UHGV virus genome: UHGV-1680239
Reading direction: 5' to 3' (one strand)
Length of the DNA stretch: 53,635 nucleotides
Source of the DNA: a virus
How positions within the stretch are numbered: the first letter of the stretch is position 1; the number at the start of each line of letters is the position of its first letter. Shown here piece by piece: positions 4,372 through 53,635 of the stretch. The position numbers were made by a program, and so were the translations under genes. The notes under the pieces were generated by a model. It was not told the origin of the DNA and did not search any database. It was given only the letters and a program-made list of their open reading frames with translations.

Positions 4372-5139
4372 TTATGCCGCGCTAACACTATGTTCAGTCC
4401 TAACCACCCCAACCTTCACAAAAGGGCTACCGTAGCTTGGTGGCTTCTTGATTAATTTGCCTACATACAGTTTTCTAATATGCTCATCGGCTATTCTGCC
4501 AACAAATTCATAACGTTTTGTGTCGGGGCCAAGAGCTATATCCCTTGTAAAGTACTGCTGAGAACCGGCTTTGACCCAGCATTCAATCTGATAAACTTCC
4601 ATTATCAGCCCACCATATGTAGCGTAGGCATATTTGAGATTCTCGTCTCTTGGAACCTTTGCCCATACGCCACGCGTAGCTTCATATAATGCCAGAGCGG
4701 ACATTCCTGACTTGTAGGTGCTGTTTAGCAGGAAGGCAAGACCGGCGTGCTCAGGAGCAATTTCAGTTTCCTCTTGCAGCACTAAGTGATGGTAGGCGTC
4801 CAGTGATATTCTGCCCATCATGGAACCACTTCCTCGAACCTTATTCGTAAGCTCTCCGACCCCCATAAGGTCGATGCATGTCGCCTCAACAAGTTTGGCT
4901 GTGGTTTCATCCATACCATGACGAAGAATATCTATGCCTAATTTTTTATTAGCCAAAAGTTCTTTGATCCGCATGGATTTGGGAGAGTCATCGGGATACT
5001 TGATGTGATCGAGACAACGAGTCGATTTGCCTTTTCCTATGTAAAACGGTCTTTTCATCTTGTCTTCTGTATCATAGAGACAGTAAACATAGTATTTAGC
5101 CTTATCCAATGATCTCGCGTATACCGATAAATCGTCCAT
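4372..5139 (-). CDS. GIY-YIG nuclease-domain protein with uncharacterised C-terminal domain
   Basis: N-terminal YYVYCLYD...RPFYIGKGKSTR matches the GIY-(10-11)-YIG motif with the downstream Arg; about 150 aa of unassigned C-terminus. Confidence 0.55.
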   Translation of the reverse strand: MDDLSVYARSLDKAKYYVYCLYDTEDKMKRPFYIGKGKSTRCLDHIKYPDDSPKSMRIKELLANKKLGIDILRHGMDETTAKLVEATCIDLMGVGELTNKVRGSGSMMGRISLDAYHHLVLQEETEIAPEHAGLAFLLNSTYKSGMSALALYEATRGVWAKVPRDENLKYAYATYGGLIMEVYQIECWVKAGSQQYFTRDIALGPDTKRYEFVGRIADEHIRKLYVGKLIKKPPSYGSPFVKVGVVRTEHSVSAA

Positions 5140-5250
5140 TATTGCATCTCTTAGCTACTGACTAATGCGTTCTATTTTACACATAAGTTTTTAATCAATT
5201 TAACAGGCTCAAAGTGTAGAGCTTCTGGGCGTCTAAGACGACAAGTTATG

Positions 5251-5305
5251 CCTGCTTCTGTATATATAAATAATAAGTAACTTATTAAATATATACGGAA
5301 GCAGG
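5251..5305. repeat. 55-bp near-perfect palindrome with AT-rich centre (copy 1 of 2)
   Basis: CCTGCTTCTGTATATAT...ATATACGGAAGCAGG; the same element, with shared left flank, recurs at 51889-51947. Confidence 0.7.
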
Positions 5306-5413
5306 TCTTTTAAAAAGACACCACCAGAACAACTCCCTTCCGTTTCCACTTCCAAAAACTGCCACCAGTCGCTATCATCCGCTCATTGTGATAAGTAAGT
5401 AACTACCTACCAG

Positions 5414-12167: not shown

Positions 12168-12556
12168 AAACATCATGATAAGTATTTACTTACTTATCTT
12201 TTATGTATAAGATGACTTTGTTTTCGTTGAGACGCGACTGTTTGAACTTAAATACAAGTGCAAACGAAGAAGTCTATCTGGCAGTAGCCTAATAAGCCAA
12301 ACACCAGCGAGGTCAGTTTCCAGCCTCGTTACCGAAATGGGACACACTGAGCGAGTGTGATTGCAGAACGCAGGAGGGAACATTCATGTTCCCTCCGATG
12401 AAGTAACAGAATGGGCGGTTGGTATATTTTCAACTCCATATGACTCCCGGATTCTTAGCCACTGACCGCCCATCCTGTTACGTCATTTTGTTCAATTATG
12501 TCGTTTATACTGGGTTAAAAAGCGGCGACGTAGCCCGGCTGGTATGGTTAGCCAGC

Positions 12557-12679
12557 ACACAACGTTGAGGCCATTACATTTTTATCAATTCTAAGGTTCT
12601 ATTCACAGAGATACCGGCGAGCGTTGATATGTAACATGTTGGGCAAACATTCAATCGGAGTAGTGGCCTCAACGTTGTG
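12557..12679 (+). repeat. long hairpin element A (16-bp perfect stem ACACAACGTTGAGGCC / GGCCTCAACGTTGTG enclosing about 90 nt)
   Basis: Shares the CACAACG...CGTTGTG stem ends with elements B-D in the tRNA island. Confidence 0.5.
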
Positions 12680-12945
12680 AAGACAGGATTGTTGTGTAGG
12701 TTTAACCACTGTTGCCATTGGTGCCTGTTTTCACAACAAATGATTCCATACATCACATTGTATAAATTATAAAGTAGGTGCTGTCCTCAGAAACATCATC
12801 TACTTAAAGATTTTGCCTTCTACTATTGAGCGAAGTCGAAAGCGTCTGGCACTAACGAAAAGTGCAAGTAGCGGTGCGTTTCCTGGCAGAAACTAAACCG
12901 TCGCGATTGGCACTGTTGAGTAATAAATACTGGCAGTGCTGAATT

Positions 12946-13020
12946 GATGGTGTAGCTCAGCGGTAGAGCAGTTGGCTGTTAACCAACTGGTCGGTGGTTC
13001 GAATCCACCCACCATCGCCA
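12946..13020 (+). tRNA. tRNA-Asn (anticodon GTT)
   Basis: Hand-folded cloverleaf: acceptor GATGGTG/CACCATC, D-arm GCTC-AGCGGTA-GAGC, anticodon loop CTGTTAA, T-arm GGTGG-TTCGAAT-CCACC, encoded CCA. Confidence 0.85.
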
Positions 13021-13025
13021 ATTTA

Positions 13026-13112
13026 GGGGAGTTAGTCCGTAGGGGCAGCGGGGTAGACTGTAAATCTACTGTCATTGCGACTCGGGTGGTTCGACTCCAT
13101 CACTCCCCACCA
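13026..13112 (+). tRNA. tRNA-Tyr (anticodon GTA), long variable arm
   Basis: Acceptor GGGGAGT/ACTCCCC, anticodon stem-loop GTAGA-CTGTAAA-TCTAC, T-loop TTCGACT, encoded CCA; D-arm geometry slightly atypical. Confidence 0.75.
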
Positions 13113-13116
13113 AATT

Positions 13117-13192
13117 GCCGGTTTAGCTCAGTTGGTAGAGCGCCTGCCTTGTAAGCAGGATGTCAGCGGTTCGATCCCGTTAACCGGCACCA
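13117..13192 (+). tRNA. tRNA-Thr (anticodon TGT)
   Basis: Acceptor GCCGGTT/AACCGGC, D-arm GCTC...GAGC, anticodon loop CTTGTAA, T-loop TTCGATC, encoded CCA. Confidence 0.85.
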
Positions 13193-13278
13193 ACACAACA
13201 GGTAAGAGCATTGGGCGAATCGGCGATACTGACCCACAAGCCCGTAAATCGATAGAGTCAGACCAGTGCTCTTACCGT
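13193..13278 (+). repeat. long hairpin element B, abutting the 3' end of tRNA-Thr
   Basis: Arms CACAACAGGTAAGAGCA / TGCTCTTACCGTTGTG with one bulge. Confidence 0.5.
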
Positions 13279-13333
13279 TGTGAGGAAGTGCAGCTCTTTG
13301 AAGCAACCAGAAGATAAGCATCTGGCTTCACAA

Positions 13334-13412
13334 CACAACGATAAGATCATTACGGTTAATCGTCGTTCATGTGCACAATGACTGGTCGAAAGGTAGTGAT
13401 CTTACCGTTGTG
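13334..13412 (+). repeat. long hairpin element C
   Basis: Arms CACAACGATAAGATCA / TGATCTTACCGTTGTG with one mismatch. Confidence 0.5.
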
Positions 13413-13512
13413 ATGAATGCACAGGCTGATGTGCCGCAACTACAGTAGTGCGCGCTTTGCGGGGCTTGCTACAACCCTGTGTCGGAGTTCAGCACCGACC
13501 ATCACAATAGCT

Positions 13513-13599
13513 GGAGAGTAGGGAGCATGGTGCTCAAGCGGTCTTGAAAACCGTCCCATTGCGCAAGCGATGATGGTTCGATTCCATTACTCTCCGCCA
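13513..13599 (+). tRNA. tRNA-Ser (anticodon TGA), long variable arm
   Basis: Acceptor GGAGAGT/ACTCTCC, anticodon stem-loop GCGGT-CTTGAAA-ACCGT, T-arm GATGG-TTCGATT-CCATT, encoded CCA. Confidence 0.8.
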
Positions 13600-13601
13600 G
13601 A

Positions 13602-13679
13602 CACAGCGTTGAGCGGTTTGGCCTTTTAATCACCCAGATTAAGACTCCGCTAACATAAACCAGACCGCTCAACGCTGTG
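13602..13679 (+). repeat. long hairpin element D, abutting the 3' end of tRNA-Ser
   Basis: 16-bp perfect arms CACAGCGTTGAGCGGT / ACCGCTCAACGCTGTG. Confidence 0.5.
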
Positions 13680-13754
13680 ATAGACAATTACGGCAGACGT
13701 TCTTAACCATAGCTTGCTAACATCCTAGCAACACTTTTTTTCAGCGCAAAATTC

Positions 13755-13777
13755 AAAGGGGCTTCGGCCCCTTTTTT
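13755..13777 (+). terminator. rho-independent terminator closing the tRNA island
   Basis: GGGGC-TTCG-GCCCC hairpin followed by TTTTTT. Confidence 0.65.
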
Positions 13778-13820
13778 GCAACTGAAAGAGTCAAGTCTAC
13801 GAACTTTGTAGGAAGAAATA

Positions 13821-51867: not shown

Positions 51868-51888
51868 TTTGTTCTGGCGTCTGTAATT

Positions 51889-51947
51889 AGCCTGCTTCTG
51901 TATATATAAATAACTACATATTAATTATTAATATACGGAAGCAGGCT
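51889..51947. repeat. palindromic element, copy 2 of 2
   Basis: AGCCTGCTTCTGTATATATAAATAA...ATATACGGAAGCAGGCT; shares stem and left flank (CTGG(G)CGTCT) with the element at 5251-5305. Confidence 0.7.
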
Positions 51948-52028
51948 GTTTTGTATCAGAGACTCCAGACCTGAACATCACTACAGAATCCACTAGAACC
52001 CCTTCCCAGACGCTTTAAAATCGATTTT

Positions 52029-53462: not shown

Positions 53463-53635
53463 GTAAGTGTTTACCTATCATTTTAAATCATGTATCTTAT
53501 CGGCGTCAGGATGACAATGTGTCGGTAAGACACAGTTCCAGGATGGAACGAGAAAGGCGGGGGGGGGGTTTCCCCCCCCAAACTTTTTTCCCCCGGGGGG
53601 GGGGGCCACACCCCCAGCAAACAACTCTTCCTTCC

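Follow-up and report, generated by a model that had tools for sequence, protein, structure and literature searches.

A widespread family of long-stem hairpin RNAs, most likely processing spacers, among phage tRNAs and tRNA-like modules

In the T4 tRNA cluster, tRNA-Arg is followed after 1 nt by rnaD (species 2) and, 6 nt further on, by rnaC (species 1), all on the same strand; these are stable RNAs of unknown function that lie directly past a tRNA. Escherichia coli 3′ETS-leuZ, a largely single-stranded sponge that binds Hfq, is a functional RNA that RNase E releases from the trailer/spacer of a tRNA precursor. The RNase III stalks of ribosomal RNA (rRNA) operons and the intergenic sites of phage T7 place a ~20-bp uninterrupted duplex between functional RNAs of one precursor; RNase III accommodates ~22 bp and, in rRNA operons, cuts 3′ of alaT and gltT (PMC6212723). 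The prophage-borne small RNAs (sRNAs) STnc100 and PasD are related to each other and are found near tRNA-like sequences (preprint 10.64898/2026.05.13.724894). Here we describe a family of long hairpins from the tRNA island (positions 12180-13780) of UHGV virus genome UHGV-1680239, a stretch of 53,635 nt that we call the window and that is an SSU5-like phage-plasmid. In layout this locus is closest to the T4 cluster, and in proposed mechanism it would be closest to the rRNA and T7 RNase III sites.

The hairpins are a real, widespread and structurally selected RNA family, absent from Rfam and from RefSeq annotation. Four of them, A to D, lie in the island and share the stem ends CACARCG...CGYTGTG, which an initial annotation of the sequence had given as CACAACG...CGTTGTG; with its spacing, this end motif occurs 3 times against 0.08 expected. 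Repeat finding, folding and a covariance model (R1, built from 28 diverse family members) recovered the four elements of that annotation, with stems of 20 bp rather than 16, and with an end for hairpin B at 13282, 4 nt beyond the 13278 given earlier:

12558..12679, + strand: hairpin A, arms CACAACGTTGAGGCCATTAC (12558-12577) and GTAGTGGCCTCAACGTTGTG (12660-12679), a perfect 20-bp stem, 82-nt loop
13194..13282, + strand: hairpin B, 20 bp plus one bulged A, 48-nt loop
13334..13412, + strand: hairpin C, 20-position stem with one A·C mismatch, 39-nt loop
13602..13679, + strand: hairpin D, perfect 20-bp stem CACAGCGTTGAGCGGTTTGG / CCAGACCGCTCAACGCTGTG, 38-nt loop

Compared with dinucleotide shuffles, the folding z-scores of A to D ranged from −4.8 to −10.1 (A, minimum free energy −47.8 and z −6.2; D, z −10.1). 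A covariance-model search had been suggested as a check, and R1, made from relatives, found exactly these four copies in the whole window and none outside the island. The scores were 67.9, 64, 62.6 and 56.5 bits for A, B, C and D, that is, 56-68 bits on the + strand against 40-47 on the − strand; the + strand was favoured by 13-28 bits.

Two further palindromes had been reported upstream of hairpin A. Both are present, with positions that we place at 12373-12396 and 12398-12486. The first is a small perfect hairpin, GGAGGGAACAT-TC-ATGTTCCCTCC, directly upstream of the second, which we call hairpin Z:

12398..12486, + strand: hairpin Z, 22-nt arms that are 91% complementary, ends GTAACAG...CTGTTAC

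Hairpin Z is a borderline match to R1 (11.4 bits, E=0.36). Its arms covary and are conserved in the SSU5, Klebsiella and CMS-2020a relatives, and the hairpin at the homologous position of P1 (h1) scores 42.6 bits with R1; Z is a probable diverged fifth member of the family.

Related elements, whose absence from other genomes the initial annotation had named as a ground for doubt, are abundant. All the relatives that we fetched (Cyrano, two CMS-2020a records, two Klebsiella phage-plasmids, SSU5, P1, P7, D6 and Ro157c2) contain the hairpin. Scanning IMG/VR with a family pattern gave 69 loci, and a looser pattern at least 120; among the matches listed there are at least 137 distinct hairpins of 60-122 nt, with 79 distinct stems. 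The carriers are P1, P7, D6, SSU5, Klebsiella phage-plasmids and ~40-kb lambdoid prophages, with four R1 copies in P1, five in D6, five in one SSU5-like contig, and two or three in Pantoea-type prophages. Over the island, the SSU5-like phage-plasmids Cyrano and Escherichia phage CMS-2020a show 96-98% identity to the window, and the tRNA region of P1, P7 and D6 shows 82-92% over parts of it. In PLSDB, 1,316 plasmids from Escherichia, Klebsiella, Salmonella, Enterobacter, Yersinia and Citrobacter carry homologues of the island. A P1-type region is present in 550 of 5,426 complete E. coli genomes, and hairpin A in 211 of those genomes; 211 of the 212 places found in E. coli are on phage-plasmids. 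Rfam 15 contains no family for the hairpins at gathering score, which only the tRNAs reach (at E up to 10, only miRNA and sX4 noise of 17-18 bits appeared), RefSeq has no annotation for this region in E. coli plasmids of the SSU5-like and P1-like kinds (it is blank in 565 P1-like records), and our literature searches found no description of these hairpins. Species-representative genomes scanned with the family pattern yielded copies only in one Pantoea prophage and one metagenome-assembled genome (MAG). The other matches in that scan were mostly unrelated hits with 12-bp stems in Rhodoluna and other Micrococcales. Several of these MAG loci (L080, L081, L083, L084 and L088-L090) carry a different, conserved and recurring hairpin of ~65 nt, CACAGCAGTAAGTTATTGG...CTTACCGCTGTG, with a ~12-bp stem, which is probably unrelated to the phage family.

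The stem is maintained by compensatory change. Standard pairs make up 97% of the stem cells in the alignment of 28 members; the figure is 82% for shuffles and 35-53% when the partners are slid. Compensatory double changes occur at 11 of the 20 pairs, and both sides are changed in 75 cells, compared with 21.8 in shuffles. Orthologues of hairpin A in Klebsiella phages, SSU5 and others likewise preserve the stem through compensatory changes. Across the family the stem is 20-23 bp long; some copies have a bulged A, but never more than one. Base pairs 1, 3, 4, 6, 7 and 11 are conserved, some of them being fixed by the search patterns, and position 17 is U·G in 14 of the 28 members, C-G in 11 and U-A in 3. 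The stem ends read CACAGCG/CGCTGTG in D-type copies and ACACAAC/GTTGTGA in others. We conclude that the fold is that of an RNA on the tRNA strand, because the mismatches there are G·U and not A·C. Non-Watson-Crick cells are G·U on that strand in 43 of 46 unambiguous cases, and the overall count in the collected hairpins, among the matches listed, is 229 G·U against 16 A·C. With the conserved 3′ flank RTGAAT as an independent guide to orientation, the counts were 110 G·U and 6 A·C in 58 distinct hairpins. Such an asymmetry would not be expected of a double-stranded DNA site or a cruciform. Single-stranded DNA of one fixed strand could in principle show it as well, but the asymmetry tracks the transcriptional direction in each of three unrelated types of phage.

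We compared the placement of the hairpins with that of the tRNAs and other features of the island. ARAGORN found, on the + strand and in the expected places, all four tRNAs of the initial annotation, which had also described the island as free of open reading frames (ORFs); short ORFs are in fact present, but none exceeds 80 aa. Each of the sequences that follow hairpins A, B and C can be folded as a module closed by its own helix:

12946..13020, + strand: tRNA-Asn (GTT), found by ARAGORN and by Rfam at gathering score
13026..13112, + strand: tRNA-Tyr (GTA), found by ARAGORN and by Rfam at gathering score; lacking in Cyrano and P1
13117..13192, + strand: tRNA-Thr (TGT), found by ARAGORN and by Rfam at gathering score; its 3′ end is CCA
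13513..13599, + strand: tRNA-Ser (TGA), found by ARAGORN; its 3′ end is CCA (44.6 bits with the Rfam tRNA-Sec model, just under gathering score)
12674..12737, + strand: module M1, stem GTTGTGAAGACAGG / CCTGTTTTCACAAC, its 5′ strand being the last 6 nt of hairpin A (z −3.4)
13277..13333, + strand: module M2, closed by GTTGTGAGG / (G)CTTCACAAC, its 5′ strand being the end of hairpin B (z −2.3)
13407..13508, + strand: module M3, a four-arm cloverleaf-like fold closed by TTGTGATG / CATCACAA, its 5′ strand overlapping hairpin C
13758..13777, + strand: intrinsic-terminator-like GGGGC-TTCG-GCCCC followed by TTTTTT, read directly from the sequence

Hairpins B and D begin directly past the CCA of tRNA-Thr and tRNA-Ser, as had been stated, with gaps of 1 nt and 2 nt. 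The same two tRNAs, with the same gaps, precede hairpins in SSU5-like phages, where hairpin D follows tRNA-Ser in nearly all relatives; in the Klebsiella type the hairpin comes after tRNA-Asn and the CA of CCA is shared with CACAACG. Such flush placement, 0-2 nt past the CCA of tRNA-Thr, Ser or Asn, recurs in dozens of phages. At the other end, the module that comes next uses the last 5-6 nt of the hairpin (UUGYG) as one side, the 5′ strand, of its closing helix. The M1 stem is CGTTGTGGTCACGG / CCGTGGCCACAACG in Klebsiella, with covariation, and M2 is ~90% conserved in P1. In M3 the closing helix and the first hairpin are conserved and covary in relatives, and a T-arm-like hairpin abuts the 3′ strand in the predicted fold. 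The overlap extends to a genuine tRNA: in contig L146 the last 3 nt of the hairpin are the first 3 nt of tRNA-Arg(UCU). In contig L017 (6907-7056) the hairpin continues into a pseudo-tRNA whose anticodon loop carries CCU and whose T-arm is canonical. We also looked at three-way covariation between the hairpin 5′ arm, GUUGYG and the module 3′ strand, which appeared in two cases only (P1 h4 and the post-Ser hairpin of P7/D6), too few to be used. The terminator-like element at 13758-13777 is likely, from its sequence, to end a non-coding transcription unit. Our consensus promoter/terminator scanner reported nothing, not even this canonical terminator, and its negative was given no weight.

The modules connect the arrays to STnc100 and PasD. 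Modules that follow hairpins in P1, P7, D6 and Pantoea-type prophages match positions 31-147 of STnc100 (RF02076), with 33-43 bits in P1, P7, D6 and Ro157c2 and 24-26 bits in the Pantoea-type prophages, all below the gathering score of 47. The closing helix of the STnc100-like modules, UUGYGRUG/CAYCRCAA, covaries and starts within the hairpin 3′ arm. The hairpins themselves, however, lie outside the STnc100 model, the window's own modules gave no STnc100 match in Rfam, and Stx2 phage 933W has no hairpin beside its tRNAs or its STnc100. Cloverleaf-like four-arm folds were predicted for several modules, STnc100-like ones included (window 13407-13508; L009 3240-3368; L120 8860-8985). Each has a closing helix of 7-9 bp, then 3 nt of linker before the first hairpin, and a final hairpin that abuts the 3′ strand; covariation supports the closing helix and the first hairpin only. 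This modelling suggests that prophage sRNAs of the STnc100/PasD type may derive from tRNA-like scaffolds.

The third phage type differs in its surroundings. In ~40-kb lambdoid contigs the array lies just downstream of a cI-type repressor gene, on the same strand, and a tRNA is nearby in 3 of 109 loci. A terminator-like stem with CUUUUU precedes the hairpin in 32 of 58 cases; we considered whether this upstream U-element could be tRNA-like, and it folds as a plain terminator-like stem. No protein gene beside the array is common to the P1-like, SSU5-like and lambdoid types (the Cyrano annotation places a ligase, a glutaredoxin and small ORFs beside the island). Contig L017 also has a match to the P22-type sar antisense RNA (33 bits, gathering score 43) at 5133-5201, 1.7 kb upstream of its family hairpin; the family is therefore present in P22-like immunity regions too.

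Published expression data and existing annotation bear on transcription of the array. The homologous region of P1 is annotated within the C1-controlled ban operon, downstream of Pban and of a 'dicF-like region'. In LB cultures of E. coli LF82, expression of the Cyrano ORF CYRAN_40 is 15-fold above the prophage median (PMC9928086 Table 1). CYRAN_40 is a minus-strand ORF over the 3′ end of tRNA-Thr, tRNA-Ser and hairpin D. The LF82 signal shows that this segment is transcribed in the carrier; the strand of the signal is not stated, so it does not show the hairpin RNA as such. From the absence of internal terminators and the P1 Pban annotation, we infer that hairpins, tRNAs and modules share one transcript. 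The P1 genes plp and upl (minus strand; L002 2575-3144, NC_005856 69472-70041) lie wholly over h2, h3, h4 and the intervening modules. The region under them is selected as a plus-strand RNA, and RefSeq annotates nothing there; like CYRAN_40, plp and upl are probably spurious. A hypothetical protein gene ~1 kb downstream of the Cyrano island, CYRAN_43 (OV696614 40268-40822, L001 3515-4069, minus strand), is reported as by far the strongest 'moron' in LF82 lysogens, at 723-fold above prophage background (PMC9928086 Table 1). The ORF list of the window has no such minus-strand ORF at the corresponding place.

Reasoning from these results, we consider processing spacers to be the most likely function of the hairpins. 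More specifically, we tentatively favour, with confidence a little short of even, the reading that they serve as punctuation in a polycistronic tRNA/sRNA precursor, where RNase III cuts them. The island would then form one + strand non-coding operon of leader RNAs, hairpins, tRNA-Asn, Tyr and Thr, tRNA-like modules, tRNA-Ser and a terminator. Each hairpin would act as a structured spacer that starts 0-2 nt past a tRNA 3′ end (in lambdoid phages, past the terminator-like stem) and whose last 3-6 nt (GUUGUG) double as the 5′ strand of the acceptor-like closing helix of the next tRNA or module. Host RNase III would make a staggered cut in the 20-23-bp stem, above the basal helix CACAACG/CGUUGUG, leaving the upstream tRNA with a short tail that exonucleases could trim to the CCA. 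The short basal duplex would melt, the freed GUUGUG would pair with the downstream CACAAC and close the next module, and the upper stem-loop would be set free as a small by-product RNA. RNase P might contribute at the junction with the downstream tRNA-like module. The common arm ends would, in addition, allow recombination within the arms to add, remove and swap units between phages.

Cleavage by RNase III would thus explain the flush placement, the shared sequence of the stem base and the conserved overlap of hairpin and module. The stems have the length of an RNase III substrate (~20-22 bp): A and D have 20 bp, and B and C 20 with one bulge or mismatch. The base of the hairpin also resembles a natural stalk. 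In E. coli 23S rRNA the helix that joins the mature ends to their flanking stalk, beside which RNase III cuts, is GUUGUGA/UUACAACG, and the basal helix of the phage hairpin has the same half-site, CGUUGUG(A)/(A)CACAACG. Unlike the rRNA stalk, the phage duplex is a local hairpin with a 38-82-nt loop in the window, occurs up to five times per operon and shares its end with the next module, and its cleavage is a proposal. Since the phage types are unrelated and have no common neighbouring protein gene, a host factor is pointed to.

Several observations weigh against this assignment. The choice of nuclease is itself an inference. RNase III has a weak sequence preference, so RNase III alone does not explain the conserved pairs 1, 3, 4, 6, 7 and 11. 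The match to the 23S stalk covers only 6-7 bp and could be due to chance (by a rough estimate 1-3%, with the known sites allowed for), and many lambdoid members are mismatched at stem position 9. The lambdoid hairpins come after a terminator-like stem and U-run, and therefore their transcription is unproven there; the LF82 RNA-seq signal, as noted, is not resolved by strand. Finally, orthologous loops retain motifs, ACUCCGC in D and CACAGAG in A, which hints at a function beyond that of a spacer.

The last point is met by a second reading, in which the hairpins are stable, trans-acting sRNAs, Y-RNA-like, with the lower stem as the binding site of a host or phage protein, the loops as effectors, and release from a tRNA precursor as nothing more than biogenesis. 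We regard it as possible, at low probability. The putative protein site would comprise CACAACG/CGUUGUG, A-U/G-C at positions 11-12 and U·G or C-G at 17. A protein-binding role explains the constant bases (several pairs stay constant while their neighbours vary freely) and the retained loop motifs better than RNase III does, with the reservation that the constancy is partly imposed by the search patterns. The existence of several paralogues per phage with different loops, the T4 precedent, the transcription of the region in lysogens (signal strand not stated) and T-arm-like hairpins in some loops, GGGTTCGAATCCC in P1 h2 and CAGAGTTCGACTCTCTG in L010, all fit an sRNA. However, units come and go between phages that are otherwise 97-99% identical, and each unit is therefore dispensable. 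RNAalifold gave no consensus structure for the inner loop of type A (eight orthologues), where the long stem alone was supported, and complementarity of the loops to the rest of the window was at chance level (10-12-mers only).

Some known RNAs resemble the hairpins in part. YrlA likewise has a conserved stem formed by its 5′ and 3′ ends, variable and sometimes tRNA-like loop modules, and several paralogues. Its stem sequence is different, and no rsr gene was seen nearby, though none was looked for. Two further points count against the sRNA reading: no protein gene is conserved beside the phage hairpins, and the Rfam YrlA model (RF02553, a Ro-binding stem plus a tRNA-like domain) does not match them; its matches of 24-26 bits (gathering score 69) fall on the tRNA-Asn and tRNA-Thr genes. 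T4 rnaC has a T-arm, CCGGGUUCGAAUCCCGG, as do some of the phage hairpin loops and modules, but rnaC and rnaD are not simple long-stem hairpins with shared ends. Homology was rejected, as R1 has no match over them (the best match in the T4 region, 10 bits, is elsewhere) and the folds differ. The phage hairpins differ from 3′ETS-leuZ in having long perfect stems, a sequence in common and numerous paralogues.

We think it rather unlikely, though worth stating, that the hairpins are more than passive spacers and make up a new class of modular phage RNA, in which the conserved lower stem recruits a specific protein and the stem gates the folding and release of the adjacent tRNAs and tRNA-like sRNAs (STnc100/PasD type) through the mutually exclusive pairing of GUUGUG.

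An unlikely alternative to RNase III cleavage is that the tRNA machinery alone processes the precursor. As in the tRNA punctuation of mitochondria, RNase P would cut the 5′ end of the downstream tRNA or tRNA-like module, inside the hairpin 3′ arm, and the freed CACAAC linker would be cut past the CCA by RNase BN or RNase E; the hairpin would be only an insulating spacer that prevents misfolding of its neighbours. In support, the hairpin 3′ end contributes to the acceptor stem in a genuine tRNA-Arg and to the closing helix in the cloverleaf-like modules, and RNase P does process non-tRNA phage RNAs, such as the C4 RNA of P1/P7. The 20-bp stem, however, should outcompete a closing helix of 7-9 bp, the 3′ flank lacks RCCA, and insulation alone leaves the conserved sequence unexplained.

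The arrays are mosaic. BLAST breakpoints between the window and its relatives cluster at the ends of modules and in the arms of hairpins (12573, 13212-13214, 13263-13267, 13331-13338, 13395, 13498-13513, 13621 and 13679). Neither tRNA-Tyr nor any of the B-M2-C-M3 block is present in Cyrano, where the junction is at ACACAA; other near-identical phages have C directly past tRNA-Thr, or another hairpin type past the B 5′ arm. Units are therefore gained, lost and swapped by recombination within the shared arms. In the DNA-level explanation, which we consider very improbable, the arm ends are recombination sites that exchange tRNA/sRNA cassettes, the hairpin forming in single-stranded DNA. The clustered breakpoints and the loss of the B-to-C block in Cyrano would suit such sites, as would the presence of the same blocks in otherwise unrelated P1-like and SSU5-like genomes. 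The shape is also that of integron attC sites, which are imperfect palindromes of ~60-140 nt (the hairpins compared here span 60-125 nt) that flank short cassettes and in which the ends alone are conserved in sequence while the rest covaries. Ordinary homologous recombination between repeats, however, explains the breakpoints, and the G·U/A·C asymmetry always follows the direction of transcription. The attC boxes R'' RYYYAAC / R' GTTRRRY are not matched either: D-type copies have AGC/GCT where attC needs AAC/GTT, and ACACAAC/GTTGTGA deviates. The stems are continuous, with no unpaired central spacer or extrahelical bases. No integron integrase context was seen, nor any dedicated recombinase beside the islands, though the window proteins were not scanned for intI or another recombinase.

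The initial annotation had offered processing signals, stable small RNAs and a small mobile palindromic element; the first two are compatible with the data and not mutually exclusive, and the third is unsupported. An inserted palindromic element beside tRNA genes, of the miniature inverted-repeat (MITE) or repetitive extragenic palindrome (REP/BIME) kind, would account for repeated units with shared termini and a copy number that varies between relatives, but it is extremely improbable: such elements require dispersed copies and target-site duplications, whereas all four copies are in the island, no duplications were found at the presence/absence junctions (which are repeat-mediated deletions), so that transposition is not indicated, the copies in the species-representative scan are limited to one Pantoea prophage and one MAG, those in E. 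coli lie almost entirely on phage-plasmids, and the arms of different copies differ in a compensatory manner that is unexpected of a recently spread element.

Some other features of the window were noted. At the start of the island (12177-12198) there is an 8-bp inverted repeat, GATAAGTA-N6-TACTTATC, in the position where, by analogy with the C1-controlled Pban of P1, a promoter or operator would be expected. The leader at 12260-12295 (+ strand) contains a frame with no start codon, GCAAACGAAGAAGTCTATCTGGCAGTAGCCTAATAA, that reads ANEEVYLAVA and two stops, and so resembles a tmRNA tag (the E. coli ssrA tag is ANDENYALAA). The corresponding frame reads ANEDTYLAVA in SSU5, ANDDLMMVAA in P1 (locus L002 2047-2079) and D6, and ANDDLMMAAA in P7. 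The Rfam tmRNA models align the tag region alone (13-24 bits, against gathering scores of 47-84). A tmRNA was rejected for 12260-12295, as ARAGORN reports none and no tRNA-like domain was found; our literature searches found no description of a tmRNA-like tag in P1. Elsewhere, one AT-centred palindrome (GCCTGCTTCTGTATATAT ... ATATATACGGAAGCAGG, 18-bp arms) occurs twice, ~46 kb apart, at 5250-5306 and 51888-51948. Its R1 matches are weak and at chance level; a repeated terminator or operator is one possible identity. At its extreme end (53559-53634) the window has long homopolymer G and C runs (GGGGGGGGGGTTTCCCCCCCC ... GGGGGGGGGGGCC), which may be a feature of the phage end or of its replication, or an assembly artefact.

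P1 is a classic model phage, and P1-like and SSU5-like phage-plasmids are common in clinical Enterobacterales, yet this region of ~1-1.5 kb is blank in RefSeq or, in older records, lies under the probably spurious ORFs plp, upl and CYRAN_40. Recognizing it as an array of tRNAs, tRNA-like sRNA modules and hairpins provides a covariance model for annotation, and suggests a link between prophage sRNAs of the STnc100/PasD type and an operon architecture derived from tRNAs. It also makes the maturation of phage tRNAs, which are of interest in counter-defence, testable with rnc, rnp and rne mutants. If the stem does recruit a protein and act as a gate, temperate phages would couple their supply of tRNAs and sRNAs, possibly together with the tmRNA-tag-like leader, to a host RNase or a defence state.

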